Source: an uncultured Chloroflexota bacterium (lineage in GTDB: Bacteria; Chloroflexota; Dehalococcoidia; CAUJGQ01). From it: DNA of 64,000 nucleotides. Below the pieces are notes generated by a model. The model was not told the DNA's origin. It did not search any database and saw only the letters and a list, made by a program, of their open reading frames with translations. Positions 28,654 through 57,771 of this stretch are shown here, piece by piece; positions within the stretch are counted from its first letter, which is position 1, and every line of letters begins with the position of its first letter. The stretch is from positions 2,071-66,070 of the forward strand of contig CALFMN010000154.1 in assembly GCA_937879875.1 (NCBI GenBank), in the 5' to 3' direction. The translations under genes and the position numbers were made by a program.

Positions 28654-28878
28654 GGGGCACCTAACCCTGATATCGCTGAAGCGATATCTGTCCCTTCCCG
28701 CCTCGGGAAGGGACTTCTGGAGCGCTCCACTCGCCGTGCGAGGGCAACGGGGCCGGGGTGTCCTTGTGAGACATGCAAACGGATTTTCTCCCGCACCTCC
28801 GGATATCCTCGAAGTCGTCCCTTCCAGTTTCGGGAAGGGACAGCTTTGCCGCCAGGCAAAGCAGGGTTAGGTGCCCCG
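28654..28878. mobile_element. MITE-like repeat, copy A (terminal inverted repeats GGGGCACCTAACCCTGA / TCAGGGTTAGGTGCCCC)
   Basis: The 17-bp terminal inverted repeats are perfect. Internal hairpins (GTCCCTTCCCGCCTCGGGAAGGGAC) and a TGGAGCGCTCCA palindrome are present. ORFs called within it are spurious. Confidence 0.6.
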
Positions 28879-28936
28879 CGCGGCCTCGCCAGGACGCATC
28901 GACCTTCAACCTCATGGAATCACAAGGAGAGCGATC

Positions 28937-29194
28937 GTGACCACGCAAACCAACAACCGTACCGACCTGATCACGCGGCTCGAAGCAGAGCAGACCGCGT
29001 TGCAGGCCGTGCTGCGAGATTTGCCGGAAGAACGCATGGGCGAGACGCTGCTGGGCGTGTGGTCGCTCGGCGACGTCCTCACGCACATCGCGACATGGTA
29101 CGAGCTGGCCACCCGCGATAGCGAACGCGCCATCCACGGTCGGACGCCGGCGCTGGCCACATTTCAGCCTGGCCGCGGCCCGCGTCCGACCTGA
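28937..29194 (+). pseudogene. N-terminal fragment of a ClbS/DfsB(DinB-like)-family protein, truncated at 85 aa
   Basis: A GTG start follows GGAGAG. TTQTNNRTDLITRLEAEQTALQAVLRDLPEERMGETLLGVWSLGDVLTHIATWYE is paralogous to the N-terminus of the frameshifted gene at 40155..40612. It sits right after MITE copy A. Confidence 0.4.
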
Positions 29195-29370
29195 TGCAGC
29201 CGCTCGCCTGGATGCGCGGTTTCCGCACCACCATTATCGGCCTGGCGCTGGCGGGCGTCGGTGCGGCCTGGCTCTGGCAGATCGGCTGGTTGCTGGCCGT
29301 CTCCCTGATCGTCGGCTTCGGCGAAACGCTTGAGTCCTCGCTCGACATCGACGCTTTCGAGAGAGAATAG
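29194..29370 (+). CDS. Small two-helix membrane peptide candidate (58 aa)
   Basis: MQPLAWMRGFRTTIIGLALAGVGAAWLWQIGWLLAVSLIVGF... has a start that overlaps the previous stop (TGATG). There is no further support. Confidence 0.25.
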   Translation: MQPLAWMRGFRTTIIGLALAGVGAAWLWQIGWLLAVSLIVGFGETLESSLDIDAFERE

Positions 29371-29447
29371 GGCGTAGCGCGTAGGGCCGTAGGGAATAGA
29401 GGGGCCTGAAGCCGTCCCTCTACGCCCTACGCCCTCTGCCCTACGCC

Positions 29448-30230: not shown

Positions 30231-30393
30231 CGGTGTACCCCTTGCAGCTGACAGGTTACAGGTGCCAGGGGACAGTATGGCCGAAGCTCGTGGCTTATGT
30301 CATGGTGTCTCTTCTCAGAAAGAGAACAAATGTGCTATTTTGAAGCGCATCAGGAGCCTGCGGCAAAACGCGGGCAGCGCGGAGGGATGCACG

Positions 30394-30837: not shown

Positions 30838-30847
30838 CCCCTGAACC

Positions 30848-31691: not shown

Positions 31692-31881
31692 CTCATACCC
31701 TCCCTGGTTGCCGGCGGCGCGGGCGCATCGCAGGACGCCCGCGAACCCCGTTCGGCGCCATCCGAAGGTCACGATAGGTCGCGGTCGGCACGAGCGCAAA
31801 TGCGTGGCGGCAGTGGGCGAGAAATGGGCAAAGCCGCGAGAGCGCCTCTTGCGGCTCTGCCGCCGGCCGGCCGGCAATCGC

Positions 31882-32331: not shown

Positions 32332-32460
32332 TGCCTGTTCCCTTCGTTCTGGCATATCGATTGCACGGAAGGCTGGGTGGCGCCGGCCCGGCATGGCCCA
32401 GCGCTGCACGGCCGGCCGCTGTCCAAGCGCTGGGGGTGGTGACGGCACAACCGGCCGGCG

Positions 32461-32895: not shown

Positions 32896-33089
32896 GGCGT
32901 TTCTCCTCGCGCGGCGGCAGCGCCCAGAACCATCGCTACCGGCACTGAGCAGCGTATTCCTGCGGCCTGCGACCGCCATCGCGGAAAGCCATGATTCCTG
33001 CTTGCGCCTGTGCCCTGAACGCGCCAGCCGCCCGGTAATGGAAACCCTGTAGCTGCCATTGCGCGTTGCACCCAGCGCCCGCGACTCCG

Positions 33090-38037: not shown

Positions 38038-38069
38038 GGGCAGAGGGCGGAGGGAATCACGTCTACGCC

Positions 38070-40612: not shown

Positions 40613-40650
40613 CATTGCGTCCTCCTGCGCGTACGGAAGTATAGCGCCCG

Positions 40651-40793
40651 CCGCACCTATCCCTGACGGCTGCGCCGTCTGTCCCTTTCCTACAAGGAAA
40701 GGGTTAGTTCGGGGAGATCGGTAGTACTCAGAAAGCCCTTCCCCTGTGGGGAAGGGACAGACTTCGCTTGCGAAGTCAGGGATAGGCGCCGCA
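40651..40793. mobile_element. MITE-like repeat, degenerate short copy E (terminal inverted repeats GCACCTATCCCTGA / AGGGATAGGCGCC)
   Basis: It has the same hairpin architecture as the other copies (GCCCTTCCCCTGTGGGGAAGGGAC, GACTTCGCTTGCGAAGTC) with diverged termini. Confidence 0.45.
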
Positions 40794-42483: not shown

Positions 42484-42488
42484 CCGTC

Positions 42489-44729: not shown

Positions 44730-45063
44730 CGTTTCTCCGTTGCTGCGATGCAACACACCGCGAAAATGAAGCGCAGCCTACGCCGCAGCTTCACGGACGC
44801 ACCGATCGCTGCTCATCATCACTGGCTACAGTGACCCCATCTTCACGGTCAGCAGTTTCACCAGTGTGTCCCCAATGTGAAATCTATGTTTCTGCACGGT
44901 GGAAGCACCCGTGCTGATTCGCTTCCACCATAACGATCTTCTGGCTGAGCCTTACCGCAACTCCGTGCATTTCCAGCGGATTTCGCGATCGTTGCTCGAG
45001 TGTTTCGGATTGCCGGTGTTCTGCCTGGTGCGCCGGTGGAGACCGGAGCGGTGGAGACGCGCT

Positions 45064-45346
45064 GGGGCACCTACCCCCGCTTTCGCTTCAGCGAAAGCTG
45101 TTGTTGGAAGTCTCCGACGGTTGCGCTGCGGTCATCGGAAGTCTCCGACGGTTGCGCTGCGCTCTGGCCCGACACGGGAAGGGTTGGTTCCAGGACACAC
45201 TATCGGGTTGGAGGTCAGACCGCCGCATATCCCACAGGGGCACCACAACCCCGCCGCCGTCGCACTGAGTATGGAGCGCTCCAGAAGTCCCTTTCCCGCC
45301 TCGGGAAGGGACAGACGCCGCTTGCGGCGTCAGGGTTAGGTGCCCG
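45064..45346. mobile_element. MITE-like repeat, copy B
   Basis: Left end is GGGGCACCTACCCCC and right end is TCAGGGTTAGGTGCCC. Internally it carries a 24-nt tandem duplication (GGAAGTCTCCGACGGTTGCGCTGCG x2) and the GGAGCGCTCC palindrome. Confidence 0.55.
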
Positions 45347-45616
45347 CTACGCCGGCCAGGCTTGGATCGACCGGCGCGGGTATGCGAACAGCGCCACAGG
45401 GAGAATCTACTATCGTGGCGCGAGCCATACTGCGGCAAACCCGGTCAACCTACTGCGCGGAGGCGGCAGCGACCGTATGCGCGCTAAAGATCCACCGCGC
45501 CGGAACGATACTTGAGGCGAGATGTTGCGGTACTCTTGCAGCGCGGACCGCGGCGCGGTCGGCTTGCGCAAACGCCCGGTTACGATGTGGTTATGTGATA
45601 ATGAGGCCCGACGCCC

Positions 45617-47863
45617 ATGACGACAACGGCCAGCGAAGCAGATGCGACGGAGGAGTTCTTGGCCTCCGAGCCCCCGCAGCAAGAGCCCTTTGTGCCGGCG
45701 ATGCACCAGGCCGTACGGCTCCTTGCACTGCACGAGCTGGCGCTGGACGCAGCGTTGGTGCACTCCACACCAGAACTCGGCGAACGCATCGTCGACGCGG
45801 CGCTGCGCATCAGCGAGGCTGAAAGCGCATCGGTCTATTTATGGGAACCGGTCGAAGGGCTGTTGCGCGCCGTGGCCCATGGCGGCGACGCCACGCCGCT
45901 CCCACCGGAAAGTGTGCAGCCCGGACAGGGCATTACCGGCACCGTCTGGCAGCTCGGCGCGCCGCTGATGGTGGATGTTTTCGATGGCGATGACGCCGTG
46001 GGTCGCACGGGCCTGCGCGCCACACTCGCCGCGCCACTCGAGGCCGGCACGCAAAAGCTCGGCGTCGTGATCGTGCGCCGCTACGCACCGGGCGCCGCTT
46101 TCTCCGCCGAAGATACCCGCATGCTCAGCCTGCTCGCCGCGCAGGCCGGGCATCTGCTCTCGCGCCGTGCGGCAGAGGAGCAGGTGCGCGCCAGCGAAGC
46201 GCGCTTCCGCGCCCTGGTGGACTACAGTTCCGACATCATCCTCGTGCTCGACCCGATCGGCACGATCACCTTCTTGAGCCCCGCCGCCGAGCGCAGCATC
46301 GGCCGGCCCGCGGAGCGCCTGCTCGGCAGCAGCGTCTTCGAGACGATCCACCGCGAGGACGCGGAGCGCCTGCACAGCGCCCTGGACGAGGTTTCGGCAA
46401 CCGTCGGGCACCAGCGTACGGTCGAGTATCGCCAGCAGACCGGCGACGGCGCCTGGGTGTATATCGAGGCGATCCTGCGCAACTCGCTGGACGACGCCAA
46501 CGTGGACGGCATCATCGTCACCGCGCGCGATATCACCACCCGCAAGCAGGTTGAGGAACTGTTGCAGCACCAGGTGCTGCATGACGCGCTCACCGGCCTG
46601 CCGAATCGCACGCTGCTGCAGGATCGCTTGCAGCACGCCATCCGCCTGGCCTACCGGCAGCGCTCGCCGCTGGCCCTGCTCTTCCTTGATCTCGACCAGT
46701 TCAAGGAAGTCAACGACCGCTTCGGCCATCACGCCGGCGACCAGCTCTTGCAGCAGGCCGCGCCGCGCCTGCAAAGCGCCCTGCGCGACTCGGATACGCT
46801 GGCGCGGCTGGGCGGCGACGAATTCGCCGTCGTGCTGCCGGGGGCGCGCAGCGCTGATGCCGAAGTTGTAGCGCAAAAAATCGTGCGCGCCTTCGAGCAG
46901 CCGTTCGTGATCGACGGCCGCCACATCACGATGCACGTGAGCACGGGCATCGCGCTGTTCCCCGACCACGGCGCCGATGCGGAGACGCTGGTGCGTCACG
47001 CCGATCTGGCGATGTACGCCGCCAAGCGCAGCGGCAGCGACACCGCTCGCTACGGCGAGCCCGAAGAACTGGAAGACCCGAACCGGCTGGCGCTGCTTTC
47101 CGAGTTGCGCCGCGCTCTGGCCCAGCGCTGGCTGCTGCTGCACTATCAGCCCGTCGTGGAGATGCCCTCCGGCCGCATCATCCGGGCGGAGGCGCTGGCG
47201 CGCTGGCAGCACCCGGAGCGCGGCCTGCTGATGCCCGACCAGTTCATTCCCCTCGCCGAGCAGGCGGGGCTGATCGCGCCACTGACCCGCTGGGTGTTGG
47301 CTACGGCGCTGCGCCAGTGCCGCGCCTGGCGGCTGGAGGGGCTGGAACTGGGCGTCACCGTCAACCTGTCGCCCCGGCTCGGCTACAACTCGCTGCTCTC
47401 CGACACGCTCACGACGCTGCTCTCGCACCTGGAAGTCGATCCGGGCTGGCTGACGTTCGGCATCACCGACGGTGGTGTAGCGGAAGACCTGCGCCGCGCC
47501 GTGGCGATGCTGGAGCAGCTCGATGCGGCGGGCGTGCGCCTCTCCGTCGAGGGCTTCGGCTCCAGCCAGTTCACGCAGCCGCACCTGGCGCAGCTCGGCG
47601 TGGACGAGATCAAGATCGACCGGGCTCTCGTCGGACGCATGGTCTTCGACCACTCCGCGCTCGCCGTCGTGCGTTCCGTGATCGAGCTGGTGCACGGCGC
47701 CGGGCTGGTCGTGGTGGCCGAAGGCGTGGAGAATCAGGAGACCTGGGACGCGCTGCTGGCACTGGGCTGCGACGCGGCGCAGGGCTTCTTCGTCGGCCGG
47801 CCGATGCCCGCCGGCATGCTGGCGGCGCGCGTCCACGAGCAGTTGCGGGCGCGGCCCTCATAG
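45617..47863 (+). CDS. GAF-PAS-GGDEF-EAL cyclic-di-GMP turnover protein
   Basis: GGDEF is literally present (LARLGGDEFAVV). EAL (RAEALARW) and downstream DDFGSG-like/EGVE motifs are present. A GAF domain and a PAS domain lie N-terminal. Confidence 0.9.
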   Translation: MTTTASEADATEEFLASEPPQQEPFVPAMHQAVRLLALHELALDAALVHSTPELGERIVDAALRISEAESASVYLWEPVEGLLRAVAHGGDATPLPPESVQPGQGITGTVWQLGAPLMVDVFDGDDAVGRTGLRATLAAPLEAGTQKLGVVIVRRYAPGAAFSAEDTRMLSLLAAQAGHLLSRRAAEEQVRASEARFRALVDYSSDIILVLDPIGTITFLSPAAERSIGRPAERLLGSSVFETIHREDAERLHSALDEVSATVGHQRTVEYRQQTGDGAWVYIEAILRNSLDDANVDGIIVTARDITTRKQVEELLQHQVLHDALTGLPNRTLLQDRLQHAIRLAYRQRSPLALLFLDLDQFKEVNDRFGHHAGDQLLQQAAPRLQSALRDSDTLARLGGDEFAVVLPGARSADAEVVAQKIVRAFEQPFVIDGRHITMHVSTGIALFPDHGADAETLVRHADLAMYAAKRSGSDTARYGEPEELEDPNRLALLSELRRALAQRWLLLHYQPVVEMPSGRIIRAEALARWQHPERGLLMPDQFIPLAEQAGLIAPLTRWVLATALRQCRAWRLEGLELGVTVNLSPRLGYNSLLSDTLTTLLSHLEVDPGWLTFGITDGGVAEDLRRAVAMLEQLDAAGVRLSVEGFGSSQFTQPHLAQLGVDEIKIDRALVGRMVFDHSALAVVRSVIELVHGAGLVVVAEGVENQETWDALLALGCDAAQGFFVGRPMPAGMLAARVHEQLRARPS

Positions 47864-47921
47864 CCCTCTTCGCCGGCTCTCCCATCCGCGCGAGAAGCCG
47901 GAAGCGGCACGGCGGGCCGGC

Positions 47922-50912
47922 TTAGCGTCGGTCCTTCAGCAGTTGCAGCCCAGTCGCCAGCGCCCCGAACGCGACGACGAAGCCGATCAAAATCACCCAG
48001 CGGCTGATCGCCGCGCCGTCGATGGCGGCGGTCTGCGGGAACTGCTCCGGGATAATCGCCAGCTTCACCACGCCCAGCACGCGCCCCAGCGCCTCATATG
48101 TCCAGCGCGTCGTCACCAGCGCGGCCAGCGGCTGCGCCGGGCCAAGATCCTTCACCGGCTGCAGGAGGCCGCTGAAGAGGATCTGCGGCAGCATGATCAG
48201 CGGCGCGGCGAACACGGCGCGGTCGGGATTCGAAACCCCGGCCGAAACCGCGAGGGCGAGCGCGACCGACGCCGCCCCGCCCAGGGCCAGCGACAACCAG
48301 GCGCCGGTCAGCCCGCTTGCCCCGCCCGGAAAATGAATGCGCAGCGCCGTGATGCCGATCAGCAGCGTCGACTGTACGACGATCAGCGCGAACAATACCG
48401 CGAACTTCGAAGCGACGTACGGAAAGACGCGCAGATTGACTACGCGCTCGCGCCGGTAGATGGCGTCCTCCTTCGAGATCTCGCGGATCGCGTTGAGCGT
48501 GCCGAGCCAGACGATCATCGCGGCCAAAATCAGTGCGAGCTGTGTGGCTTTGCCGGCGTTCGTATTGCCGTTACCGCTTGCCAGATCGCAGTCGCCGCTG
48601 AGGCCGAGCGCGGCGATGCGTGTCGGGCTGCAGTCCGGCCCGGTCACGGCGAGCAGCGTCGCATGTGAATCGACACCGCTGATCGCGCCGGTCCTCGGAT
48701 CAGGCGTCACGGGCCGCAGGACGCCATTGTCCTTGGCGAACACGAGCACGCCGCTCGGACGTGTGAAGACCGCGGGCTTGAACAGCAACCAGAGGAAGAG
48801 CGCGAAGATCGGCGCCTGCAGGAGCAGGATCAGCAGGTTCTTGCGATCGTTCAGCACGATATTGGCGTAGCGCCGCGTCAGGATCTGGAGCTGGCGCCAG
48901 GCCACGGGCTGCGGCCGGTGCTTGCCCGGACCGGCCGTTTCGCGGCGCGGCTGCTGCGGCGCCAGGGCGGCGGCGGCGCCCTGCGGATGCTCCAGCCGCG
49001 CCTGGATCTCGTACTGATAGAAGGGCGACGCCTGGAACGACTGTTCCCACTCCTCCGGCGATCGCGTGTTCTCGATCAGGTCGTAGATATCCTCGAACTC
49101 GGCCACTCCGAAGTAATCGAGCGCGGCCCGCGGCGGACCGAAGTAGGCGATGCGGCCGCCACGCGCCAGAAAGAGCGCCTTGTCGCAGAGCGAGACGTTG
49201 CGCGTGGCGTGGGTGATCAAGAGCACCGTGCGGCCCTGGTCGGCGAGCTGGCGCAGCAGCGCCATCATGCGCGTTTCCGTGCCCGGATCCAGGCCCGAGG
49301 TCGGCTCGTCCAGGAAGAAGAGCGGCGGGCTGGTCAGCAGCTCCACGCCGATGCTGACGCGTTTGCGCTGGCCGCCGCTCAGGCTGGCCACGATCGTCTG
49401 GCGCTGGCGCTGCAAGCCCAGCTCCTCGATCACCTCGTCCAGACGGGCGGCGCGCTCGGCGGGCGTCACGTCTTCCGGCATGCGCAGCTGCGCGGCGTAG
49501 TCCAGCGCTCGCTCGACGCTCAACTCCTTGTGGATGATGTCGTCCTGCGGCACATAGCCGATCTGTGCGCGCAACGAGTCGAAATGGTCGTAGAGCGAGA
49601 AGCCGTTCAGCAAGACCTGCCCGCTGGTCGCGGGCCGCAGGCCGCTGAGCGCGCCCAGCAGTGTCGACTTGCCCGCGCCCGAGACGCCGACCACGGCCAC
49701 GAACTCGTGCGGCTGGACGACGAGCGTGATGTCCTGCAGGATCGCCGTGCCCTTGCCGACGAGCTTGCGCAGGTTGAGCGCCTCCAGCAGGATGCCCGTC
49801 GTCTCGTCGAAGTGCTCGATCTCACCCTGGCGCACCGTCAGGCGGTACGGCCCGATGCGAATCACGTCGCCTTCGCGCAACTGGCGCTCGGCGATCGCCT
49901 CGCCGTTGACGTAGGTGCGGTTGGTGCTCTTGAGGTCGCTGATCACCCAGGGCGCATCGGCGGCGGCGCGGACGACGACGGCGTGCTCGCGCGACACCTG
50001 CGGCGACGGCAGCACGAGGTCGTTGCTGGCAACGCGGCCGACGGTAATCCGCGCCGCGCCGGGCTCGTGCGGTACCACGCGCGGCCGTGTATCGCTGCCG
50101 GGCGGAAGCGGTCCCGGTGCGAGCGGCGGCGCGCTGCCCCCGCGAGCCGGCTCGATCGCGGCAGTAGTGCCGAGCATGCTGGCAGAAGCGGGCGCCGGCT
50201 GCGGCTCGGCGCCGCTCTCTCGACGAAGTGCCTGGGTCACCGCGTCCGGATCGGTCGTGCCGCCCGGCGCCGCGACGAGCGTCTGCGGATCATCGGCGCG
50301 CAGGGCGAAGGTGATGGTCACAGCGCCGGAGAGCTGGAACGTTTCACCGTCGTTGAGCAGCGCTTCTTCGACCGGCTGGCCGTTGATCGAGGTGCCGTTG
50401 CGGCTGTGCAGATCGACGACCTCCCAGCGCTCGCCCCGCCGGCGCACCACCGCGTGATGCACCGAGACGGTCGGCAGATCGATGGGAATGTCGTTAGTGT
50501 TGCCGCGGCCGATCGTCACCTCATCGCGCTGCATGCGCACGCTGAAGCGACGGTTGGGCGTGTGGACGTAGAGCACGGGCCGGAAGTCGGTGTTCGTCGC
50601 GGTTGCCGGGCGTGCGGCCATGGCCGGCGCCTTCAGCGTGAGCTGAAACGAGCCGATGCCGATACGATCGCTGGGGCCGACCTCGGCCGTTTCGCTGCGC
50701 AGCACGCGTCCGTTCAGCGTCGTGCCGTTGGCGCCGCCCAAGTCTTCGACGAAGATCGACGCGGCCCGGCGCACGATGCGGGCGTGATGGCGCGAGACGC
50801 TCGCATCGGCCAGCACCAAATCGTTGTCGGTGGAGCGGCCGACGGTGATGTCGTCCTTGTCGGACGCCTCCTGGCGGGCGTCTCCGTCGCGTTCGATCAG
50901 CAGTTCGAGCAT
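47922..50912 (-). CDS. FHA(x3)-ABC ATPase-ABC-2 permease fusion (ABCG-like half transporter), paralogue 1
   Basis: Three FHA cores are VGRSTDNDLVL...GTTLNG, IGRGNTNDIPI...GTSING and VGRVASNDLVL...RTYVNG. Walker A is GVSGAGKST, the signature is LSGGQRKRVSIG, and Walker B is LFFLDEPTSGLD. A 6-TM ABC-2 domain is C-terminal. Start was taken at MLELLIERDG. Confidence 0.85.
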   Translation of the reverse strand: MLELLIERDGDARQEASDKDDITVGRSTDNDLVLADASVSRHHARIVRRAASIFVEDLGGANGTTLNGRVLRSETAEVGPSDRIGIGSFQLTLKAPAMAARPATATNTDFRPVLYVHTPNRRFSVRMQRDEVTIGRGNTNDIPIDLPTVSVHHAVVRRRGERWEVVDLHSRNGTSINGQPVEEALLNDGETFQLSGAVTITFALRADDPQTLVAAPGGTTDPDAVTQALRRESGAEPQPAPASASMLGTTAAIEPARGGSAPPLAPGPLPPGSDTRPRVVPHEPGAARITVGRVASNDLVLPSPQVSREHAVVVRAAADAPWVISDLKSTNRTYVNGEAIAERQLREGDVIRIGPYRLTVRQGEIEHFDETTGILLEALNLRKLVGKGTAILQDITLVVQPHEFVAVVGVSGAGKSTLLGALSGLRPATSGQVLLNGFSLYDHFDSLRAQIGYVPQDDIIHKELSVERALDYAAQLRMPEDVTPAERAARLDEVIEELGLQRQRQTIVASLSGGQRKRVSIGVELLTSPPLFFLDEPTSGLDPGTETRMMALLRQLADQGRTVLLITHATRNVSLCDKALFLARGGRIAYFGPPRAALDYFGVAEFEDIYDLIENTRSPEEWEQSFQASPFYQYEIQARLEHPQGAAAALAPQQPRRETAGPGKHRPQPVAWRQLQILTRRYANIVLNDRKNLLILLLQAPIFALFLWLLFKPAVFTRPSGVLVFAKDNGVLRPVTPDPRTGAISGVDSHATLLAVTGPDCSPTRIAALGLSGDCDLASGNGNTNAGKATQLALILAAMIVWLGTLNAIREISKEDAIYRRERVVNLRVFPYVASKFAVLFALIVVQSTLLIGITALRIHFPGGASGLTGAWLSLALGGAASVALALAVSAGVSNPDRAVFAAPLIMLPQILFSGLLQPVKDLGPAQPLAALVTTRWTYEALGRVLGVVKLAIIPEQFPQTAAIDGAAISRWVILIGFVVAFGALATGLQLLKDRR

Positions 50913-50970
50913 GGTCCGTCCATGATAGTCGTCACGATTCTGAAGGTCATCTGGCAACGTCGGCGGCGCA

Positions 50971-51178
50971 GGGCACCTAACCCCGCCGCGCCTGAAGGCA
51001 CGTCTCCCTTCCCGACACGGGAAGGGTTGGTCCGAGGATGGGTGAGAGCCCGCCGCGCGTCCCACAAGGACACCCCGGCTCCGCCGCCGTCCGCCGTCGG
51101 CGGGAACGCTCCAAAAGTCCCTTCCAGTTTCGGGAAGGGACAGACCTGGCTTCAGCCAGGGCAGGGTTAGGTGCCCCG
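50971..51178. mobile_element. MITE-like repeat, copy C, between FHA-ABC paralogues 1 and 2
   Basis: GGGCACCTAACCCC...GCAGGGTTAGGTGCCCC ends are present, with internal GTCCCTTCCAGTTTCGGGAAGGGAC hairpins. Confidence 0.6.
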
Positions 51179-51224
51179 CCCAGCGGCCAGCGTTCGCCCC
51201 ATTGCCGCGATCGACGGTCAGCCC

Positions 51225-54059
51225 TCATCGCCGGTCCTTCAGCCGCTGGAGGCCGACGGCCAGCGCACCGAACGCGGCGACGAAACAGAGCAGGATCAGC
51301 AGGCGCGTGATCGCCGTGCCGTCGGCGGCGTCCCGAAACTGAAACTTGCTGCGCAGCGTGGTGGCCGTCGAGACGACATTCGAGATCCGTGCGAGCGCCT
51401 CGAACGTCCAGCGGCTGGCGATCAGCGCCGCCAGCGGCTTCGCGACGCCGAGCTGACTCACCGGCACGAAGATCCCGGCGAAGAAGACCTGCGGCAGCAT
51501 GATCAGCGGCGCCGCAAACACCGCGCGGTCGGGGTTCGAAACGGCCGCCGAGACAGCCAGCGCCAGCGCCACGGCGGCGGAGCCGCCGAGCACCAGGCAG
51601 AGCCACATGCCGACATCAGCGCCGCCGCCGGGCATATCGACCTTGATGGCGACAACGCTGAAGAGCAAGGTCGCCTGCACGACCACCAGCGCCAGCAACA
51701 CGGCGAACTTGGACGCGATGTAGGGAAAGACGCGCAGGTTGACCAACCGCTCGCGCCGGTAGATCGCGTCTTCCTTCGAAATCTCGCGCACGGCGTTCAA
51801 CGTGCCCAGCCAAACCGCGGTAGCCGCAAGGATGAATGCGAGCTGAATCGCCTTATTCGCCTTCCAGTTGCCGTCGCCGCTATCGACGGCGCATGTACTC
51901 GACGGCGTGGGATTGCGAGGATCGCAGTTGCCGGTGAACGCCGCGGGCTGCGCGCCGAGCCGACCGACGGTGTAGCCCGGAGGCCGCTGAAAGAGGTTGG
52001 CCTGCGGAAACAGCGCCCAGAGCAGGACGGCGATAATCGGCGCCTGCAGCAGCAGGATGGCCAGATTCTTGCGGTCGCGCAACACGATCTCGCCGTAGCG
52101 CCGCGTGAGGATCGAGAACTGGCGCCAGGCCTCGTTGCGCGTGCCGTGCTGGCCCGGCCCGGCCGTGACCGGCCGCGACTGCACCGGCGTGGCGGCGGCG
52201 GCGCCCGGCGTGTTGACGATGCGGCTGCCGATCTCCGACTGGTACAGCGGCGAGGCGTGGAAGCGCTGCTCCCACTCCTCGGGCGAGCGCGTGTTCTCGA
52301 TCAGGTCGTAGATCTCGTCGAAGCGGCCGACGCCGAAGTATTGCAGCGCCATGTCCGGTGCGCCGAAGAAGGCGAGCCGCCCGCCGCGTGCCAGGAAGAC
52401 CACGCGGTCGCACTGCGCGATGTTCACCGTGGCGTGCGTAATCAGCAGGATCGTGCGGCCCTGGTCGGCGAGCTGGCGCAAGAGCGCCATCATGCGCGTC
52501 TCGGTCGCCGGATCGAGGCCGGACGTTGGCTCGTCCAGGAAGAAGAGCGGCGGCTTGGTCAGCAGCTCCACGCCGATGCTGACGCGCTTGCGCTGGCCGC
52601 CGCTCAGGCTCGCTACGACCGTGCTCTTCTGCGCCTCCAGCCCCAGCTCGCCGATCACCTCGGACACCCGCGCGTTGCGTTCAGCCGGGCTGGTGTCCGC
52701 CGGCATGCGCAGCTCTGCGGCGTAGTTCAGCGCCCGCTGCACGCTCAGCTCCTTGTGGATGATATCGTCCTGCGGCACGTAGCCGATCTGCTGACGCAGC
52801 GCGTCGAAGTGCTCGTACAGCGAGAAGCCGTTCAGCAGCACCTGGCCCTTTGTCGCCGGGCGCAGGCCGCTGAGCGCGCCCAGCAGTGTCGACTTGCCCG
52901 CGCCCGACACGCCGACGATGCCGACGAACTCATGCGGCTGCACCACCAGCGTGATCGGTTGCAGGATCGTCTTGCCTTTGCCGACCTGTTTGGTCAGGCC
53001 GAAGGCTTCCAGCAACATGCCGGCGGTCTCGTCGAAGTGCTCGATCTCGCCGTGCCGCACCGTCAGCCGAAAGGGGCCGATGCGTACGACGTCGCCTTCG
53101 GCGAGTTGCCGCTGTGCGACGGCGTCGCCGTTGACATACGTGCGGTTCATGCTGCCCAGGTCCGTAATCGACCAGGGCGCGCCCTCCGCCGGCCGCTCAA
53201 GCACCGCATGCTGCCGTGAGATCTGCGGCGAATCAAGCACCAGCTGATTCTGCGGCGAGCGGCCGATCGTCAGGTGGACGGCGCCGGGACCATGCGGGAC
53301 CAGCCCCTGCGTGCGCGGCCGCCCGCCCGACGAGACAGCCAGCGCCGCCGGTTTCAGGCGGAAGGTCAGCGCCACGTCGGTGCCGAGCGCGACGCGGTCG
53401 CCGTCGTGCAGCGGGGCCGACTCGATCTGCCGGCCGTTGACGAAGGTGCCGTTGCGGCTGCGCAGGTCGATCACCGTCCAGCCGTCGTCCTGGCGGCAAA
53501 CCATCGCGTGGCTGGCGGAGAGCGTGGGGGCCGCAAGGGAGATGTCGTTGCCAGGGCCGCGTCCCAGCGTCGCCTCGTCGCGCTGCATGATGAAGCTGAA
53601 GCTGCGCCCGTCGGCCTCGATCAGCAACTCCGGCCGGGCAGCCGCGAGATTCGCGGGCGTCGTCGCGCCCGGCGCTCCGGCGGCAGCAGTTTGACGCAGA
53701 TTGACGGCCGCGGGCGGCGGGGAAGGCGCGAAGCCGCCGGCGGCTGCCACTGTGCCGCCCAGCGGCTGACCGAGCTCGTACGCCGCGATGCGGTAGGCGC
53801 CGACGACGAACTCCTCGCCAGGCCGAATCTGTGCGGCTTCGGATCGCAGCAGGCGGCCGTTGAGCTGTGTGCCATTGGTCCCGCCGAGGTCTTCGAGATA
53901 GAGCGCGCCGTTGCGTTGCACCACGCGGGCGTGCTGCCGCGAAACGCTCTCGTCCGGCAGCACGATGTCGTTGCCGGGTGCACGGCCCAGGGACGCCTCC
54001 TCACGGGAGACCGTCTGTTCGCGCGATGCCGAACCACCCTCGATGCGAAAGCGCAGCAT
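51225..54059 (-). CDS. FHA(x3)-ABC ATPase-ABC-2 permease fusion, paralogue 2
   Basis: It has the same architecture and motifs as paralogue 1, for example GVSGAGKST and LSGGQRKRVSIG. It is 944 aa. Confidence 0.85.
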   Translation of the reverse strand: MLRFRIEGGSASREQTVSREEASLGRAPGNDIVLPDESVSRQHARVVQRNGALYLEDLGGTNGTQLNGRLLRSEAAQIRPGEEFVVGAYRIAAYELGQPLGGTVAAAGGFAPSPPPAAVNLRQTAAAGAPGATTPANLAAARPELLIEADGRSFSFIMQRDEATLGRGPGNDISLAAPTLSASHAMVCRQDDGWTVIDLRSRNGTFVNGRQIESAPLHDGDRVALGTDVALTFRLKPAALAVSSGGRPRTQGLVPHGPGAVHLTIGRSPQNQLVLDSPQISRQHAVLERPAEGAPWSITDLGSMNRTYVNGDAVAQRQLAEGDVVRIGPFRLTVRHGEIEHFDETAGMLLEAFGLTKQVGKGKTILQPITLVVQPHEFVGIVGVSGAGKSTLLGALSGLRPATKGQVLLNGFSLYEHFDALRQQIGYVPQDDIIHKELSVQRALNYAAELRMPADTSPAERNARVSEVIGELGLEAQKSTVVASLSGGQRKRVSIGVELLTKPPLFFLDEPTSGLDPATETRMMALLRQLADQGRTILLITHATVNIAQCDRVVFLARGGRLAFFGAPDMALQYFGVGRFDEIYDLIENTRSPEEWEQRFHASPLYQSEIGSRIVNTPGAAAATPVQSRPVTAGPGQHGTRNEAWRQFSILTRRYGEIVLRDRKNLAILLLQAPIIAVLLWALFPQANLFQRPPGYTVGRLGAQPAAFTGNCDPRNPTPSSTCAVDSGDGNWKANKAIQLAFILAATAVWLGTLNAVREISKEDAIYRRERLVNLRVFPYIASKFAVLLALVVVQATLLFSVVAIKVDMPGGGADVGMWLCLVLGGSAAVALALAVSAAVSNPDRAVFAAPLIMLPQVFFAGIFVPVSQLGVAKPLAALIASRWTFEALARISNVVSTATTLRSKFQFRDAADGTAITRLLILLCFVAAFGALAVGLQRLKDRR

Positions 54060-54139
54060 GATCGCCGCTTCTCATCCAACCACTGAATGCGTGCCTGTGA
54101 CGGCACCGGCTCATCGTCTGATCGTGGGAAACTGGCGGT

Positions 54140-57055
54140 TCACCGCCGGTCTTTGGTGCGTTGCAGCGCCGCGGCGAGCACGCCGAACGCCACGACGAAA
54201 CCCAGCAGGATCAGCCAGCGGCTGACAGCGCTGCCGTCGAGTCCGTCCCGGTACAGGAATACGGGCGGCAGCGCGGTCGCATTGATGATCCCGGCGGCGC
54301 GCCCAGCCGCCTCGAAGGTCCAGCGTGCGGTTGTGAGCGCCGCCAACGGCTGGGCCGGACCGAGCTTCGACACGGGCACGAGCAGCCCGGCGAAGAAGAT
54401 CTGCGGCAGCATGATCAGTGGCGCGGCGAACACGGCACGGTCGGGGTTGGAGACGGCGGCGGAGACGGCGAGCGCGACCGCGACCGAGGCAGCCCCGCCC
54501 AGCACCAGGGCGAGCCAGACGCCGGGCACGCCGCCCGCCGGTACCGGGACACGGATCAGCGCGACGCCGAAGAGCAGCGTCGCCTGGATGGCGACGAGAA
54601 CCAATAACACGGCGAACTTCGAGGCGATATAAGGGAAGACGCGCAGGTTCACCAGCCGCTCGCGGCGGTAGATGGCGTCTTCCTTCGAGATCTCGCGGAT
54701 CGCGTTCAGCGTGCCCAGCCAAACGGCGGTCGCGGCGAGGATGAAGGCCATGCGCGCGGCTTCGGAGGCGTTGCCGTTGCCGTTGCCCTGGTCCTGATGG
54801 CAGCCTGGTTCGTTAAAGGGATTGCCCCGATCGGAGCAACCCGTTCCTGTGAAGACGATGAAGGTAGGGACGTTGCTTTGACCCGATTGCCCGCCCGCGC
54901 CCTGGCGAAGACCGGGATTCCGTTTGAATTGCAACTCGGCTTGCTTCACCCCGACGGGATCGAGCGCGATCGGCCCCTGCGCGCCGTCTATGACGATTAC
55001 TGGATTGGGCGGCGCCTTGAACAGATTCCCATTGGTGAACAGCGCCCAGAGCAACACGGCGATGATCGGCGCCTGCAAGAGCAGAATCGCCAGGTTCTTG
55101 CGGTCGCGCAGCACGATCTCCGCGTAGCGCCGCGTCAGGATCTTGAACTGGCGCAGCGACTCCGACGGCTGGCGCGCCTGGCCCGGTACGTAGACTGCCC
55201 ACACTTTCGGCGCCGGCGCAACGAGCGCCGCCCCCGGCAGGTGTTCGATACGCTCGGCAATCTCGCTCTGGTAAAGCGGCGAGGCGGCGAACGACACCTC
55301 CCACTCCTCCGGCGTGCGCTGGTTCTCGATCAGGTCGTAGATGTCTTCGAACTCGCGCACGCCGAAGTAGTCGAGGGCAACTTTCGGTGCGCCGTAGAAG
55401 GCGACACGGCCGCCGCGCGCCAGAAACAGTACACGATCGCACATCGAGACGTTGCGCGTGGCGTGCGTGATCAGGAGCACCGTGCGGCCCTGGTCGGCGA
55501 GCTGGCGCAGCAGCGCCATCATGCGCGTTTCCGTGCCCGGATCGAGGCCCGAGGTCGGCTCGTCCAGGAAGAAGAGCGGCGGGCTGGTCAGCAACTCCAC
55601 GCCGATGCTGACGCGCTTGCGCTGGCCGCCGCTCAGGCTCGCCACCACCGTCTGGCGCTGCTGTTCGAGGCCCAGCTCGGCCAGTACCTCGCTCACACGC
55701 GCGGTCTTCGCGGCCGGCGGCAACTCGGCAGGCAGGCGCAACTCGGCCGCGTACTCCAGCGCTCGTTCGACCGGCAGCTCGCGGTGGATGATATCGTCCT
55801 GCGGCACGTAGCCGATCTTCGCGCGCAGCGCCTCGAAGTGCTCGTAGAGCGACATGCCGTTCAGCAGCACCTGGCCGGAGGTCGCCGGCCGGAAGCCGCT
55901 GAGCGCGCCGAGCAGCGTCGATTTGCCTGCACCCGAGACGCCGACCACGGCCACGAACTCCTGCGGCCGCACGACCAGCGAGACGTTGTTGAGGATCACC
56001 TTGCCGTTGTCGACTTCGCGCCGCAGGTTGAGCGCTTCGAGCAGGATGGAGGCCGGCTCCGGCTCGGCCGGGATCGGCGGTGGCGCCGGCGCGATCTGAG
56101 CAACCTCGACGATCCGCGGCGGTCGCGGCGCCTGCCGGTTCCCCCCGCCGAGCGGCCCCGCACCGCCCAGCGGTCCGACCCCACGCCGCGGCCCAGGCGC
56201 CGCGTCCGGCCGGGCCACGACGGCTGGACGCGCGTTCGGACTGCCGAGAGGGGGCACGGGCCGGAAGAACGACGCGCCCGCATCCGCTTCTCCCGGCGCC
56301 GGCGGCGCGGCCGCGATCTGCGCCACCGGCTCGCGCAGCTCTTCGGGCCGCACGGCCGCGGTTTCGACGAGCTGCGTCGCCTGCGGCTGCTGGCTGACCG
56401 GCACCTCGGTGCTCAGATGCGAGCTTTCCACGAAGCGAAAGATGACAGTTACGGAGTCTGCGAGCTGAAAGCGGGTTCCGTCTTTGAGCAACTCCTCCTC
56501 GATGCGCCGGCCGTCCATCTGCGTGCCGTTGCGGCTGTTGAGGTCGACGATCTCGAAACGGTCGCCCAGGCGGCGCACGACGGCATGGTGCGAGGAAACC
56601 GTACCCACGCGGACGGTGAGGTCGTTCGACTCGGCGCGGCCGATCGAGACCTGGTCATGCTCGATCGGATAGGTGAAACGGCCGTCCGGCGTCTCCACGA
56701 TCAGCATCGGCCGCGGCTGCGCGGGTGCTGGTGCAGCCGTGGCGCCCTGCTGTCCAACGAGCCCGACGTGCAATAAGGCATGGAGCTGGAAGGGGCCGAT
56801 GCCGACGAGGTCGCCCGGCTTCACCTCGGCCCAGGCGTTCATCAGCAGGTTGCCGTTGACGCGCGTGCCGTAGGTTCCCCACAGGTCTTCGACGTAGATG
56901 GCGTCGCCGTGGCGCCAGAGGCGGGCGTGGCGCAGCGAAACGCCCGCATCCGCCAGCACGACATCGTTGTCCGGCGCGCGCCCCAGCGTCACCTCATCCC
57001 GGTCAAGCATCTCCTCCCGAGACTGGCCGGCACCCGCGATTTGCAGCCGGATCAT
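54140..57055 (-). CDS. FHA(x2)-Pro-rich linker-ABC ATPase-ABC-2 permease fusion, paralogue 3
   Basis: Two FHA cores are followed by about 110 aa of Pro/Ala/Gly-rich linker, then the ABC and ABC-2 domains. Start was taken at MIRLQIAG. Confidence 0.85.
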   Translation of the reverse strand: MIRLQIAGAGQSREEMLDRDEVTLGRAPDNDVVLADAGVSLRHARLWRHGDAIYVEDLWGTYGTRVNGNLLMNAWAEVKPGDLVGIGPFQLHALLHVGLVGQQGATAAPAPAQPRPMLIVETPDGRFTYPIEHDQVSIGRAESNDLTVRVGTVSSHHAVVRRLGDRFEIVDLNSRNGTQMDGRRIEEELLKDGTRFQLADSVTVIFRFVESSHLSTEVPVSQQPQATQLVETAAVRPEELREPVAQIAAAPPAPGEADAGASFFRPVPPLGSPNARPAVVARPDAAPGPRRGVGPLGGAGPLGGGNRQAPRPPRIVEVAQIAPAPPPIPAEPEPASILLEALNLRREVDNGKVILNNVSLVVRPQEFVAVVGVSGAGKSTLLGALSGFRPATSGQVLLNGMSLYEHFEALRAKIGYVPQDDIIHRELPVERALEYAAELRLPAELPPAAKTARVSEVLAELGLEQQRQTVVASLSGGQRKRVSIGVELLTSPPLFFLDEPTSGLDPGTETRMMALLRQLADQGRTVLLITHATRNVSMCDRVLFLARGGRVAFYGAPKVALDYFGVREFEDIYDLIENQRTPEEWEVSFAASPLYQSEIAERIEHLPGAALVAPAPKVWAVYVPGQARQPSESLRQFKILTRRYAEIVLRDRKNLAILLLQAPIIAVLLWALFTNGNLFKAPPNPVIVIDGAQGPIALDPVGVKQAELQFKRNPGLRQGAGGQSGQSNVPTFIVFTGTGCSDRGNPFNEPGCHQDQGNGNGNASEAARMAFILAATAVWLGTLNAIREISKEDAIYRRERLVNLRVFPYIASKFAVLLVLVAIQATLLFGVALIRVPVPAGGVPGVWLALVLGGAASVAVALAVSAAVSNPDRAVFAAPLIMLPQIFFAGLLVPVSKLGPAQPLAALTTARWTFEAAGRAAGIINATALPPVFLYRDGLDGSAVSRWLILLGFVVAFGVLAAALQRTKDRR

Positions 57056-57087
57056 GCAGCGCTCCGTGGCCAGAGCTGGCCGGCGTG

Positions 57088-57519
57088 TCAATCTTCTTGC
57101 ACCGGCCAGCGCCAGTCTACCACGCGCTCCGGCTGAATGCGGATGACGGGCAGCTCTTCCAGCGCCATCTCACGATATTGCGGATAGCGTGCGCGCAAGG
57201 CCACGATCGCCGCGAGCTGCTCGCCGCCCGGCAGCACAATCTGCGCCGTTCCGCGTATCTGCAGCCAGCGCAGCCGGCGCCAGTCCTCGTCGTAGTCGTC
57301 AACCGTGAGACAGACGGCGGGATTTGCTGCGAGGTCACGGACGCGGCGCAGGCGCTCGACCGGCACGCGTTTCGGCTTGCGATCGAGCGGCGTGTAGATA
57401 GCGCCGCCGTAGAGCGCGAAGCAGACGGGCACGACGTGCGGTTTGCTCGCGCCGTCGGCCGTGGCGAAGTGCGCTACGCGATGCGCCAGCAGGAAGGCGG
57501 TCTGTTCAGGGGAAAGCAT
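57088..57519 (-). CDS. PPOX-class (pyridoxamine 5'-phosphate oxidase-like) probable F420-dependent enzyme
   Basis: MLSPEQTAFLLAHRVAHFATADGASKPHVVPVCFALYGGAIY is the typical split-barrel N-terminus. It is 143 aa and lies 33 bp upstream of FHA-ABC paralogue 3. Confidence 0.7.
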   Translation of the reverse strand: MLSPEQTAFLLAHRVAHFATADGASKPHVVPVCFALYGGAIYTPLDRKPKRVPVERLRRVRDLAANPAVCLTVDDYDEDWRRLRWLQIRGTAQIVLPGGEQLAAIVALRARYPQYREMALEELPVIRIQPERVVDWRWPVQED

Positions 57520-57553
57520 CGTTCGCTCCGGCTCAGACGACTCAGGACACGCG

Positions 57554-57771
57554 GGGCACCTAACCCTGACCTGGCTGAAGCCAGGTCTGTCCCTTCCCGA
57601 CACAGGAAGGGTGGGTTCGAGGACAGACAAAGATTGGGAGACAATCCGTCTGCGCTTCCCACAAGGACACCGCCGCCCCGCCGTCGCACAGAGTATGGAG
57701 CGCTCCAGAAGTCCCTTCCCGCCTCGGGAAGGGACAGACTTCCCGCCAGGGAAGTCAGGGTTAGGTGCCCC
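57554..57771. mobile_element. MITE-like repeat, copy D
   Basis: Terminal inverted repeats GGGGCACCTAACCCTGA / TCAGGGTTAGGTGCCCC are perfect. Coordinates were cross-checked against the codons of the spurious ORF 57474..57797. Confidence 0.6.

Follow-up and report, generated by a model that had tools for sequence, protein, structure and literature searches.

A hairpin-ended palindromic repeat family dispersed between genes in Dehalococcoidia

Introduction

Dehalococcoidia form a large uncultured lineage of soils and springs, and their mobile DNA is poorly characterised. A 64,000-nucleotide stretch of the genome of an uncultured member (the window) contains several short intergenic sequences with inverted termini, which the initial annotation described as a MITE-like family. 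What kind of element are they, and by what means have they come to lie between so many genes? Not all dispersed bacterial palindromes are MITEs. REPINs are inverted hairpin repeats, found in hundreds of intergenic copies, that contain no gene and do not duplicate their target; they depend on a RAYT, a Y1 HUH transposase whose single gene is located elsewhere in the genome, typically with repeats on its flanks. In these repeats hairpin structure outweighs stem sequence. Here, we analyze the anatomy, covariation, flanks, and genomic setting of the window copies and of their relatives in metagenomes.

Results

The Window Copies Belong to a Dispersed Repeat Family

When the window was searched for the terminal repeat GGGGCACCTAACCCTGA with up to three mismatches, 10 matches were found, compared with 0.11 expected from shuffled sequences. 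The matches pair, plus strand then minus strand, into five elements (A, E, B, C, and D; Table 1), located where the initial annotation had placed its repeat family. It had left open that the sequence might be unique to the window or that the termini might fail to align. In fact, the window copies (143–283 bp) can be aligned end to end over their whole length, and at least 99 further distinct copies exist elsewhere: in two JGI metagenomes containing related Dehalococcoidia, 91 stretches yielded 103 paired copies, of which 99 are distinct; the modal length is 222–224 bp. The lengths of these paired copies are not multiples of 3, and the termini are kept across 71 aligned copies. Both orientations occur, as had been claimed (A runs opposite to B, C, and D; among metagenome copies the balance is 47:46). 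Irregular spacing of 5–12 kb and mixed orientations rule out a CRISPR or tandem array.

Table 1. Positions of the five window copies and their parts
Feature	Position	Strand	Description
Copy A, full-length	28653..28878	-	226 bp including flanking C/G; inverted relative to B–D
Copy E, short degenerate	40650..40792	+	143 bp, hardly more than two end modules
Copy B, long subfamily	45064..45346	+	283 bp; extra GTCTCCGACGGTTGCGCTGCG module replaces the left CCCTTCCC arm
25-nt direct repeat, two units, in copy B	45106-45130 and 45137-45161 (45106..45161)	+	period 31, exact matches
Copy C, full, shortened center	50970..51178	+	~209 bp; CCCCG/C--TCCC left-end subfamily
Copy D, canonical full-length	57552..57772	+	221 bp including flanking C/G
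Copy D, left end module	57553..57611	+	terminal repeat 57553-57569; h1 57570-57585; h2 57591-57611
Copy D, center	57622..57670	+	variable-stem hairpin with GGGAGA loop, 57622-57652; then near-palindrome region 57655-57670
Copy D, TGGAGCGCTCCA palindrome	57696..57707	+	family consensus listed here as GGGAACGCTCCA
Copy D, right end module	57711..57771	+	h2 57711-57735; h1 57738-57755; terminal repeat 57755-57771

The five copies differ in how closely they follow the family. Both termini of copy D are exact, and it matches consensus positions 1–226 at 84%; copy A, with 0 and 1 mismatch in its termini, matches the same positions on the minus strand at 83.6% (BLAST). Copy E has three mismatches in each terminus, and its end modules alone match the family consensus; similar mini-forms occur in three metagenome loci (L021, L018, and L040). 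Over 285 bp, copy B shares 80% identity with a copy that another organism carries (L010:7936-8217). The tandem duplication reported in copy B is real, but its size had been given as 24 nt; it consists of two 25-nt units with a period of 31 nt. It is also present in the L010 copy, while copies in L084 and L002 have a single unit of this module; since it is common to copies from different organisms, the duplication is a subfamily mark and not a private event.

The copies are old, with a mean pairwise identity of 75%. The maximum is 93%, and as no pair is nearly identical, recent movement of the family is not demonstrated. A window copy resembles copies of another organism as closely as it does the other window copies. 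The distribution of the family is poorly known. Neither terminal 12-mer was found in a text search of the literature, a very strict 29-base family pattern had no match in GTDB representative genomes, and no match was found in viral contigs (two patterns) or plasmids.

End Modules Contain a Hairpin Maintained by Pairing

The two ends of an element are inverted versions of a single ~60-nt module, which is the true terminal inverted repeat and comprises the terminal repeat, a first hairpin (h1), and a second (h2), in that order. The terminal sequence of the module is C-GGGGCACCTAACCCTG. h1 is a hairpin of 7–8 bp whose stem sequence is hypervariable yet 96% paired; h2 is a sequence-conserved hairpin, CCCTTCCC-loop-GGGAAGGG. 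The GTCCCTTCCC-N-GGGAAGGGAC hairpins pointed out previously are indeed present near both ends. A polar, non-coding core of ~100 nt separates the two end modules.

In a covariation count over the stems, 97.8% of cells were paired. Two-sided changes were found in 260 cells, compared with 95 ± 10 in shuffles (none of 500 reached 260) and 6–41 in slid controls. They affect 6 of the 8 pairs of each h1 helix and include GC↔CG and AU↔CG swaps. Such survival of h1 pairing through many two-sided changes is unlike the random decay of a MITE, and the MITE reading therefore needs revision. To our knowledge, compensatory evolution of a sub-terminal hairpin has not been reported for bacterial MITEs.

The two ends draw on a common pool of h1 hairpins (17 shared types), and the polarity of the h1 loop, read from the outside in, is identical at both (TGAA 51, TTCA 8). 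Wobble pairs give no strand bias: with more than 1,000 pairs at each end, G·T and A·C pairs number 6 and 6 at the left end and 13 and 6 at the right. That G·T is no commoner than A·C, and that one hairpin pool serves both ends, points to a constraint acting on the end hairpins as DNA rather than as RNA.

The core is less uniform. The initial annotation had described a 12-bp palindrome as conserved, and TGGAGCGCTCCA is indeed found exactly in copies A, B, and D, but copy C has GGGAACGCTCCA and copy E lacks the motif. Since, within the window, the exact form is limited to those three copies and the family-wide consensus at this position is GGGAACGCTCCAGAA, the perfect palindrome is a subfamily state. 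Further inside, the family has a central near-palindrome, GTGTCC-CACAA-GGACAC, the left arm of which is degenerate in copy D, where CTTCCCACAAGGACAC is found at 57655-57670. Copy D as a whole is predicted to fold as single-stranded DNA at −69.9 kcal/mol (z = −8.1). Fold predictions for the centers of single copies disagree with one another, and we therefore make no claim about the family center beyond its conserved motifs.

Copies Lie between Genes and Can Be Absent from Orthologous Sites

Checked against gene positions, all five window copies are intergenic, in agreement with the annotation, and no copy has an internal gene, a transposase included. Three copies (A, D, and E) separate genes that start divergently; copy A has on one side a TetR gene on the minus strand, starting at 28542, and on the other a plus-strand ORF preceded by AAGGAG. 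Copy B is located upstream of a gene start and copy C between two tandem paralogous FHA-ABC transporter genes. Copies elsewhere in the family are likewise always intergenic; ilvC, murA, and mreB are examples of the housekeeping genes around them. The suggestion that copies contribute promoters gained no support, either from a scan for promoter and terminator consensus sequences inside copies, which gave no match, or from orientation relative to neighboring genes, which is without bias (25:16).

In three relatives (L100, L102, and L103; 92%, 89%, and 86% amino-acid identity), the region upstream of the orthologous GGDEF-EAL gene has no copy B, as expected of an inserting element. The surrounding intergenic DNA is unalignable, and the empty-site junction cannot be placed to the nucleotide. 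No intact copy was present in ~84 kb of non-redundant DNA from relatives, and the closest relative sampled has almost no copies. At another site, a decayed relic in one lineage (L094) is orthologous to a full copy in a second (L084). Overlapping loci of the two metagenomes are ~100% identical and hence uninformative for polymorphism.

No Target-Site Duplication or Parent Element Was Found

The initial annotation could see no clean target-site duplication by eye, and a test of 93 copies agrees, with none of 3 bp or more. In this test, copy-specific direct repeats (k = 2–9, nine offsets) were not in excess, k = 5 giving 0–1 matches. Of 97 copies, 93 have C at position −1, and G predominates at +1, which places the element between C and G; this fixed CG, inseparable from the inverted repeat, is the sole remaining candidate and a possible one. 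Beyond it, the flank consensus is weak, GC-rich, palindromic, and symmetric (CCGCGC-element-GCGCGG), which implies that the true ends or the target are not fully defined. Copy-specific complementarity between flanks is in slight excess (Smith-Waterman score 14.9 versus 12.9, p = 0.009), but the excess is weak and driven by few copies, and insertion into palindromes was rejected as a general property. Nested insertions were likewise discarded as a readout of the target, none being a clean insertion into known sequence: long copies are right-half/right-half chimeras, copies with extra modules, or, in L084, a truncated copy abutting a full one.

A full-length parent IS, for which a search had been proposed, did not come to light. 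Among 235 end modules in ~1 Mb, none belongs to an autonomous element with matching ends, and no left-right pair of modules is more than 400 bp apart; the genes between neighboring copies are housekeeping genes. When the DNA analyzed here was searched by tblastn, with approximate sequences of the IS200 TnpA protein and of a RAYT from E. coli as queries, only chance-level matches appeared, the best in a Ser/Thr kinase ORF.

Bacterial MITEs and similar repeats do resemble the family. Correia/NEMIS elements of Neisseria, Nezha elements of cyanobacteria, and ERIC sequences share with it their short length, non-coding nature, inverted termini, dispersal over intergenic positions, and stable fold, and bacterial MITEs also form mosaic subfamilies with internal insertions and deletions. 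However, bacterial MITEs have a defined target duplication (TA for Correia), and for several a parent IS has been identified. Thus, the MITE-like label holds for non-coding, intergenic, dispersed sequences that are short, at under ~600 bp, and have inverted termini, but a classical MITE requires a target duplication, and since none of 3 bp or more is present, that class is not supported; among the 235 modules, no parent IS was found that would speak for it.

A cut-and-paste MITE of the DDE family could nevertheless be reconciled with these data if the real ends were GGGCACC...GGTGCCC and a 2-bp CG target were duplicated, hidden in the apparent inverted repeat. IS630/Tc1 elements duplicate a TA target, and an IS630-like gene (HTH + DDE_3) is present on a related Dehalococcoidia contig (L098). 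The C at −1 and the G at +1 fit such a duplication, and the size, inverted termini, dispersal, and intergenic position are typical of MITEs. Yet no parent with these termini exists among the 235 modules, copy-specific duplications are absent at every length and offset examined, and the flank consensus is palindromic beyond the CG. Nor would compensatory upkeep of a sub-terminal hairpin be expected of ends bound by a DDE enzyme. We consider a DDE element unlikely.

End Modules Resemble the Rfam Family whalefall-1

At the gathering threshold, no Rfam family matched the window or 10 further loci. Below it, the model of whalefall-1 (RF01762; gathering score, 37 bits) matched 11 ends in 56 kb with 23–33.5 bits and E values down to 5e-5. 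Model positions 1–56 align full-length at both ends of copies, and the variable stem also agrees. In copy D, the right module (57714-57767) scores 27.9 bits (E = 2e-5, full model 1–56) and the left module 19.2 bits on the minus strand. The initial annotation does not mention this resemblance.

The two families share a 56-nt architecture, in which a pyrimidine-rich hairpin (CUCCCC..GGGGAG in whalefall-1, CCCTTCCC..GGGAAGGG in the window) is followed by ACAGA, a variable-stem hairpin, and UCAGxGGxAGG; the conserved stem differs by one compensatory pair change. whalefall-1 was published as a stand-alone non-coding RNA, rated 'Y' as RNA on the strength of covariation and tetraloops, and the available part of the publication makes no mention of a paired, repeat-like nature (Weinberg et al., 2010, Genome Biol 11:R31, PMC2864571). 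In the accessible portion of the authors' flanked alignment, an inverted partner is located ~100 nt upstream in five of six instances (GUCCUCACCCUGA-hairpin-UCUGUCCCUCCCC..GGAGGGAC), which makes these instances the right end of a ~150-nt palindromic unit. The left end of that unit, in the same portion, aligns with the left end of the window family: CCT(A/C)ACCCTGA..TCTGTCCCT(T/C)CCC. To judge from this alignment, the whalefall-1 "sRNA" appears to be one end of a related palindromic repeat. The families are nonetheless distinct: the outermost terminal bases differ (GTCCTC... in whalefall-1, GGGGCACCTA... in the window family), whalefall-1 units are ~150 nt long in an AT-rich organism compared with 222 nt here, and every match of the window family is below the gathering score (at most 33.5 versus 37 bits).

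The copies might then be small structured RNA genes or domains, as whalefall-1 is in Rfam, transcribed and serving either the host or a mobile element, for example an outward-reading guide or scaffold RNA with its 3′ end in the flank. The systematic full-model matches, the published 'Y' rating of whalefall-1, the strong stem covariation, and a loop class that reads as CUUG or GCAA depending on the strand all agree with an RNA. However, modules come in inverted pairs with the same loop polarity, so that one transcript would hold two non-equivalent versions, and G·U makes up ~1% of pairs and is no commoner than A·C, unlike genuine RNA helices. Together with the sub-threshold scores, the balanced orientation relative to flanking genes, the lack of promoter or terminator consensus inside copies, and a relic that decays freely in one lineage, this makes an RNA gene quite improbable.

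Conservation Patterns and a Possible Host Function

Conservation within the family is a mosaic, with invariant blocks beside saturated ones, and combined with the similarity across organisms it could equally mean purifying selection at the level of the host. The copies would then be domesticated cis elements of the REP/BIME, ERIC, or Correia kind, acting as mRNA stabilisers or processing sites, insulators, or sites for nucleoid proteins or gyrase. Invariant blocks at 75% mean identity, strictly intergenic positions, a very high density, with 5 copies in the 64 kb of the window and 3 in 6 kb of one locus (L013), and distances of 3–118 nt from stop codons where copies adjoin gene 3′ ends are all compatible with this. 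But divergent gene pairs are enriched for copies (28) and convergent pairs depleted (10), and it is between convergent genes that a terminator or stabiliser would be most useful. The nearly copy-free closest relative and the decayed copy at an orthologous site also argue against domestication, and there is no resemblance to those known binding sites that could be checked. Such a role appears very unlikely.

Finally, integron attC-type recombination sites are hardly credible: ACCTAAC/GTTAGGT in the termini fits the R″/R′ core sites RYYYAAC/GTTRRRY directly and inside an imperfect palindrome with a very stable single-stranded DNA fold, but chance readily produces a match to a 7-mer in which four positions are degenerate. 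Copies are dispersed among core genes at intervals of 5–12 kb, in either orientation, with no one-way array of promoterless cassettes and no integrase, their ~222 bp exceed the ~57–141 bp of attC sites, and the related whalefall-1 termini lack the motif in the available part of their alignment; the core match is probably a coincidence.

Discussion

We favor, at little better than even confidence, the view that the copies are non-autonomous, hairpin-ended palindromic repeats of Dehalococcoidia (Chloroflexota), selfish, REPIN/MITE-like, and mobilised in trans. An enzyme encoded elsewhere in the genome would recognize the folded end modules as DNA, in single-stranded or cruciform form, and the element would enter GC-rich intergenic DNA without duplicating its target. 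Propagation would be restricted to copies with intact hairpins. Alternatively, the two arms of a hairpin may be corrected against each other during replication. By either route, selection or arm correction, the stems would stay complementary while their sequence drifts.

Among known systems, REPIN/RAYT (IS200/IS605-like Y1) shares with the window family an inverted pair of hairpins, intergenic position, many copies, and no target duplication. Elements of the window family exceed typical REPINs two- to threefold in length and contain a conserved polar core of ~100 nt, each of their ends carries two hairpins and a 17-nt terminal sequence, and a GTAG-type tetranucleotide as in REP sequences is not evident in the end modules. 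We take this as a likeness and not as membership. PATEs, derived from IS200/IS605, are similar in their sub-terminal hairpins, lack of target duplication, and non-autonomous nature. However, PATEs lack terminal inverted repeats, both of their end hairpins belong to one strand, and they integrate 3′ of a fixed tetra- or pentanucleotide that is present at one side alone. In the window family, one end is a true inverted copy of the other, hairpin pool and loop polarity are shared between them, and the flank consensus is symmetric; we rejected this class.

A wider proposal, which we put forward tentatively and regard as doubtful, is that the whalefall-1-type module is the terminal recognition structure of an unrecognised cross-phylum superfamily of hairpin-ended mobile palindromes, inserted without target duplication via single-stranded or cruciform DNA by a class of enzyme that has so far not been connected with them. 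whalefall-1 and the Dehalococcoidia family would both be non-autonomous members, and h1 would be upheld either because template switching occurs between its arms or because copies are selected for their ability to transpose. In a bolder variant, outward transcription from each end into the flank might supply a nuclease encoded by a transposon with a guide-type RNA.

A hairpin kept by pairing rather than by sequence, together with the absence of target duplication, points to mobilisation outside the standard DDE cut-and-paste mechanism. whalefall-1, an Rfam family without function, organism, or context since 2010, can be reinterpreted as one end of a palindromic repeat. More generally, RNA genes cannot be told from DNA-level hairpins of mobile elements by covariation alone. 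Repeats of this kind also fragment metagenome assemblies and may be mis-annotated as sRNAs. The density in the window, one copy per 13 kb, extrapolates to some hundreds of copies per genome. If our reading is correct, it adds an abundant and structurally unusual repeat family to Dehalococcoidia.

Copies in the window and their neighbourhood

The terminal 17-mer GGGGCACCTAACCCTGA has 10 matches in the window (≤3 mismatches), against 0.11 expected from dinucleotide shuffles. Occurring in the order plus then minus, they pair up into five elements (A–E) that can be aligned along their entire length, bearing out the five-copy inverted-repeat family of the initial annotation and its occurrence in both orientations. 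Divergent gene starts flank copies A, D and E; copy B is upstream of a gene start, and copy C separates two tandem paralogues. The gene content is unremarkable and includes ilvC and TetR, short-chain dehydrogenases, an FAD oxidase and an amino-acid permease, as well as a GGDEF-EAL protein and three FHA-ABC transporter paralogues in tandem.

Positions in the window of the repeat copies and of the motif in their termini
Feature	Position	Form or orientation	Basis
Copy A	28653-28878	opposite orientation to B, C and D	paired termini
Copy E	40650-40792	143-bp form, little beyond two ends	paired termini
Copy B	45064-45346	long form	paired termini
Copy C	50970-51178	left-end variant CCCCG...C--TCCC	paired termini
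Copy D	57552-57772		paired termini
ACCTAAC / GTTAGGT	e.g. 57558-57564 and 57760-57766		termini of all family copies

The transporter genes (47922-57091, minus strand) encode ~1000 aa each, with two to three FHA domains plus ABC_tran and ABC2_membrane, and their DNA segments are 67-85% identical; copy C separates the first gene from the second, and copy D is ~460 bp past gene three, with a short ORF on the minus strand in that interval. At 24001-26000, G+C content falls to 0.61, compared with ~0.69 in the rest of the window. ENA ERZ27245795 contig k141_81735 (69.8 kb) contains the window sequence without a mismatch, and a JGI 3300022557 contig matches the window at 99.99% identity. The best named relatives of its IlvC are in Dehalococcoidia MAGs, with GCA_035310145.1 at 94% identity. 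In this closest relative (L094:4389-7919), ilvC has next to it a 58-aa ORF (4389-4565) that weakly matches the TetR C-terminal domain; then come a HEPN gene, a 759-aa nucleotidyltransferase/DUF7380 gene, and an intact TetR gene. This order suggests a defence-type insertion at the site of the window's lone TetR gene. A related Dehalococcoidia contig (L098:6130-7223) carries an IS630-like transposase annotated as two ORFs, the first with HTH domains and the second with DDE_3.

Anatomy and distribution of the family

The anatomy of the element was derived from 71 aligned canonical copies. From the outside in, an end module consists of a flanking C (adjoining the element in 93 of 97 copies), GGGGCACCTAACCCTG, hairpin h1 (stem 7-8 bp, loop 2-4 nt), CTG, and a second hairpin, h2, CCCTTCCC-loop-GGGAAGGG; the opposite end is the same module, inverted. 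Thus the terminal inverted repeats are present, but the 17 bp originally assigned to them is too short: the structured unit is ~60 nt. The polar core of ~100 nt between the modules has conserved blocks TTCGAGGA, a GGGAGA motif in variable context, GCCCCGCCGCCGTCGCA and GGGAACGCTCCAGAA, with a conserved GTGTCC-CACAA-GGACAC at its exact centre. The 12-bp palindrome TGGAGCGCTCCA, described as conserved, exists in that state in A, B and D only. Besides the left-end variant to which copy C belongs, subfamilies include a long form with a GTCTCCGACGGTTGCGCTGCG module instead of the left CCCTTCCC arm (copy B is a member), right-half/right-half chimeras, and mini-forms resembling E. The tandem duplication in B is real, at 25 nt × 2 rather than 24 nt; it is common to a copy of another organism (locus L010), and so is not peculiar to B.

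In a metagenome collection, a pattern spanning the terminus and the second hairpin matched 91 stretches, all on contigs with the JGI prefixes Ga0207416 and Ga0102924. The 98 paired copies in these loci, which show that the repeat is not unique to the window, bring the total to 103 (99 distinct), with a sharp length mode at 222-224 bp; ~20 additional copies have one degenerate terminus. The family is therefore large and not restricted to the window organism. Host genomes of the metagenome copies differ from that of the window: besides the repeats, only a few gene segments are alike (~68-70% identity). Locus L084 is 84% identical to GCA_035310145.1 across a peptidase gene. Judged by such sequence comparisons, the hosts and the window organism are of the same broad clade. 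A very strict pattern gave no match in GTDB representative genomes, and none was among the matches listed in a second scan; nothing similar to the family was found in viral contigs, plasmids, or the searchable literature.

A second palindromic repeat family (~290-350 bp) is found together with the first, both in the window (63473-63762; relic at 47848-47885) and in metagenome loci (L027:8556-8882, L090:3829-4181, L074:1875-2166, L009, L026, L066, and L079). It has termini GGCCCTCATAACCCC.. and four internal copies, two direct and two inverted, of CCCCTTCTCTCCCATAC; its terminus (..CATAACCCC) is similar to that of the first family (..CACCTAACCC). At L005:14411-14537, a long, nearly perfect hairpin directly adjoins a family copy; several microRNA-precursor models matched it on both strands, up to 59 bits and under their thresholds, and it is probably yet another palindromic repeat. 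One family-carrying metagenome organism has a 23S rRNA gene (L015:9552-14254, minus strand) split by a group I intron (RF00028, 67 bits, 11237-11492) and followed by tRNA and 5S rRNA.

Evidence for mobility

Copies occur at unrelated loci amid core genes (murA, mreB) in both orientations, in 28 divergent, 41 tandem, and 10 convergent gene contexts. Three relatives (protein identity 92%, 89%, and 86%) lack copy B upstream of the orthologous GGDEF-EAL gene and share conserved non-coding blocks flanking the missing segment on both sides. These blocks, strongly conserved in four related genomes (window ~44850-44900 and 45480-45616, with copy B inserted between them), include GGTTTCGCCAGTGTGTCCCCAATGTGAAATCTATGTTTCTGC, GCTAAAG, CGATACTT, and TTATGnAATAATGAGG and may represent a promoter, an operator, or a leader RNA. 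No intact copies were found in ~84 kb of non-redundant DNA from relatives. A full long-form copy is present upstream of a peptidase gene in one lineage, and a decayed relic of that copy at this place in another. At 4 of ~61 gene 3' ends facing an element (93 copies, metagenome loci and window), the ORF enters the element by 10 nt and stops at the TAA in the terminal GGGGCACCTAA; there the repeat supplies the stop codon.

At each length tested between 2 and 9 bp, no copy-specific direct repeats flank the copies, and the flank consensus is weak, symmetric, and GC-rich. Among 235 end modules in ~1 Mb, no pair lies >400 bp apart; hence neither an autonomous copy nor a full-length parent with matching termini is present there. 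The lack of a flanking duplication, and of an autonomous copy in this DNA, argues against a textbook MITE, and the earlier MITE-like designation is only partly upheld. A DDE-type MITE whose CG duplication is hidden is, in our estimate, unlikely. Copy-to-copy identity averages 75% (maximum 93%, no near-identical copies), and window copies are as alike to other organisms' copies as to each other. We conclude that the family is old; recent activity is not demonstrated.

Relationship to whalefall-1 and the level of constraint

No Rfam family matched anywhere in the window at its gathering score. At permissive thresholds, the ends of copy D matched whalefall-1 (RF01762) over the entire 56-position model (27.9 and 19.2 bits), and 11 element ends in four other loci matched at 23-33.5 bits (lowest E 5e-5), none attaining the gathering score of 37. 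By the Rfam criterion, we take the window family to be a relative of whalefall-1 and not a member. Both share a plan of pyrimidine-rich hairpin, ACAGA, variable-stem hairpin, and UCAGxGGxAGG. According to Weinberg et al. (2010; PMC2864571), whalefall-1 is two hairpins plus a purine-rich tail, has 16 instances from a whale-fall metagenome only, and is graded certain RNA. In the flanked alignment of that source, an inverted counterpart (GUCCUCACCCUGA, variable hairpin, UCUGUCCCUCCCC..GGAGGGAC) lies ~100 nt upstream in five of the six instances examined. This left end aligns with that of the window family, CCT(A/C)ACCCTGA...TCTGTCCCT(T/C)CCC, and the conserved stems differ by a compensatory pair. 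Whalefall-1 thus appears, from these instances, to be the right-hand end of a ~150-nt palindromic repeat built like the window family.

Pairing in the 71 copies was assessed by RNAalifold and explicit pair counting. Paired cells make up 97.8%, and two-sided changes were counted in 260 cells, compared with 95 ± 10 in column shuffles (0 of 500 reached 260) and 6-41 in slid-partner controls. They affect six of eight pairs of each h1 helix (for example, AU 30 / CG 28 at one pair and GC 34 / CG 27 at another); h2 and terminal pairs hardly vary. The structure is under constraint. Each end has 46-50 different h1 sequences from a common pool (17 types occur at left and right), and loop polarity read from outside is the same at both ends (TGAA 51 vs TTCA 8); this makes left and right equivalent modules in inverted orientation rather than separate portions of a single RNA. 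G·T pairs make up ~1% of pairs and are no more frequent than A·C mismatches (6:6 and 13:6), many swaps are GC to CG or the reverse, without a wobble intermediate, and element orientation relative to flanking genes has no significant bias (25 vs 16). Together with the equivalent ends, these features argue against selection on a transcript, and the constraint looks DNA-level. A true structured-RNA family strikes us as quite improbable. Folded as single-stranded DNA, a canonical copy gives -69.9 kcal/mol (z = -8.1); central-region folds disagree between copies, so no structure is claimed for the centre. As possible sources of the stem covariation we infer either selection for transposition competence or arm-to-arm template switching at quasi-palindromes.

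Interpretation

We lean towards a non-autonomous, trans-mobilised palindromic repeat: an enzyme acting in trans would recognise the two-hairpin ends as folded DNA, and the element would insert without duplicating its target. By analogy, REPINs would be closest in their way of working; the window family is larger and more complex. A domesticated cis-acting element is a doubtful proposition. That the copies are attC-like sites is scarcely credible: ACCTAAC/GTTAGGT in the terminal repeat fits the integron attC R''/R' consensus (RYYYAAC / GTTRRRY), but the copies are dispersed in two orientations and whalefall-1 termini lack the motif, so we judge the resemblance a coincidence.

The feature is real and a new repeat family, not a new category. 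What sets it apart is the lack of target duplication, the compensatory change in the hairpins of its ends, and the failure of ~1 Mb to yield a parent element. The link to whalefall-1 is informative in tying an orphan Rfam motif to a repeat family; the finding would matter more should the whalefall-type module turn out to mark a class of hairpin-ended mobile DNA that spans phyla.
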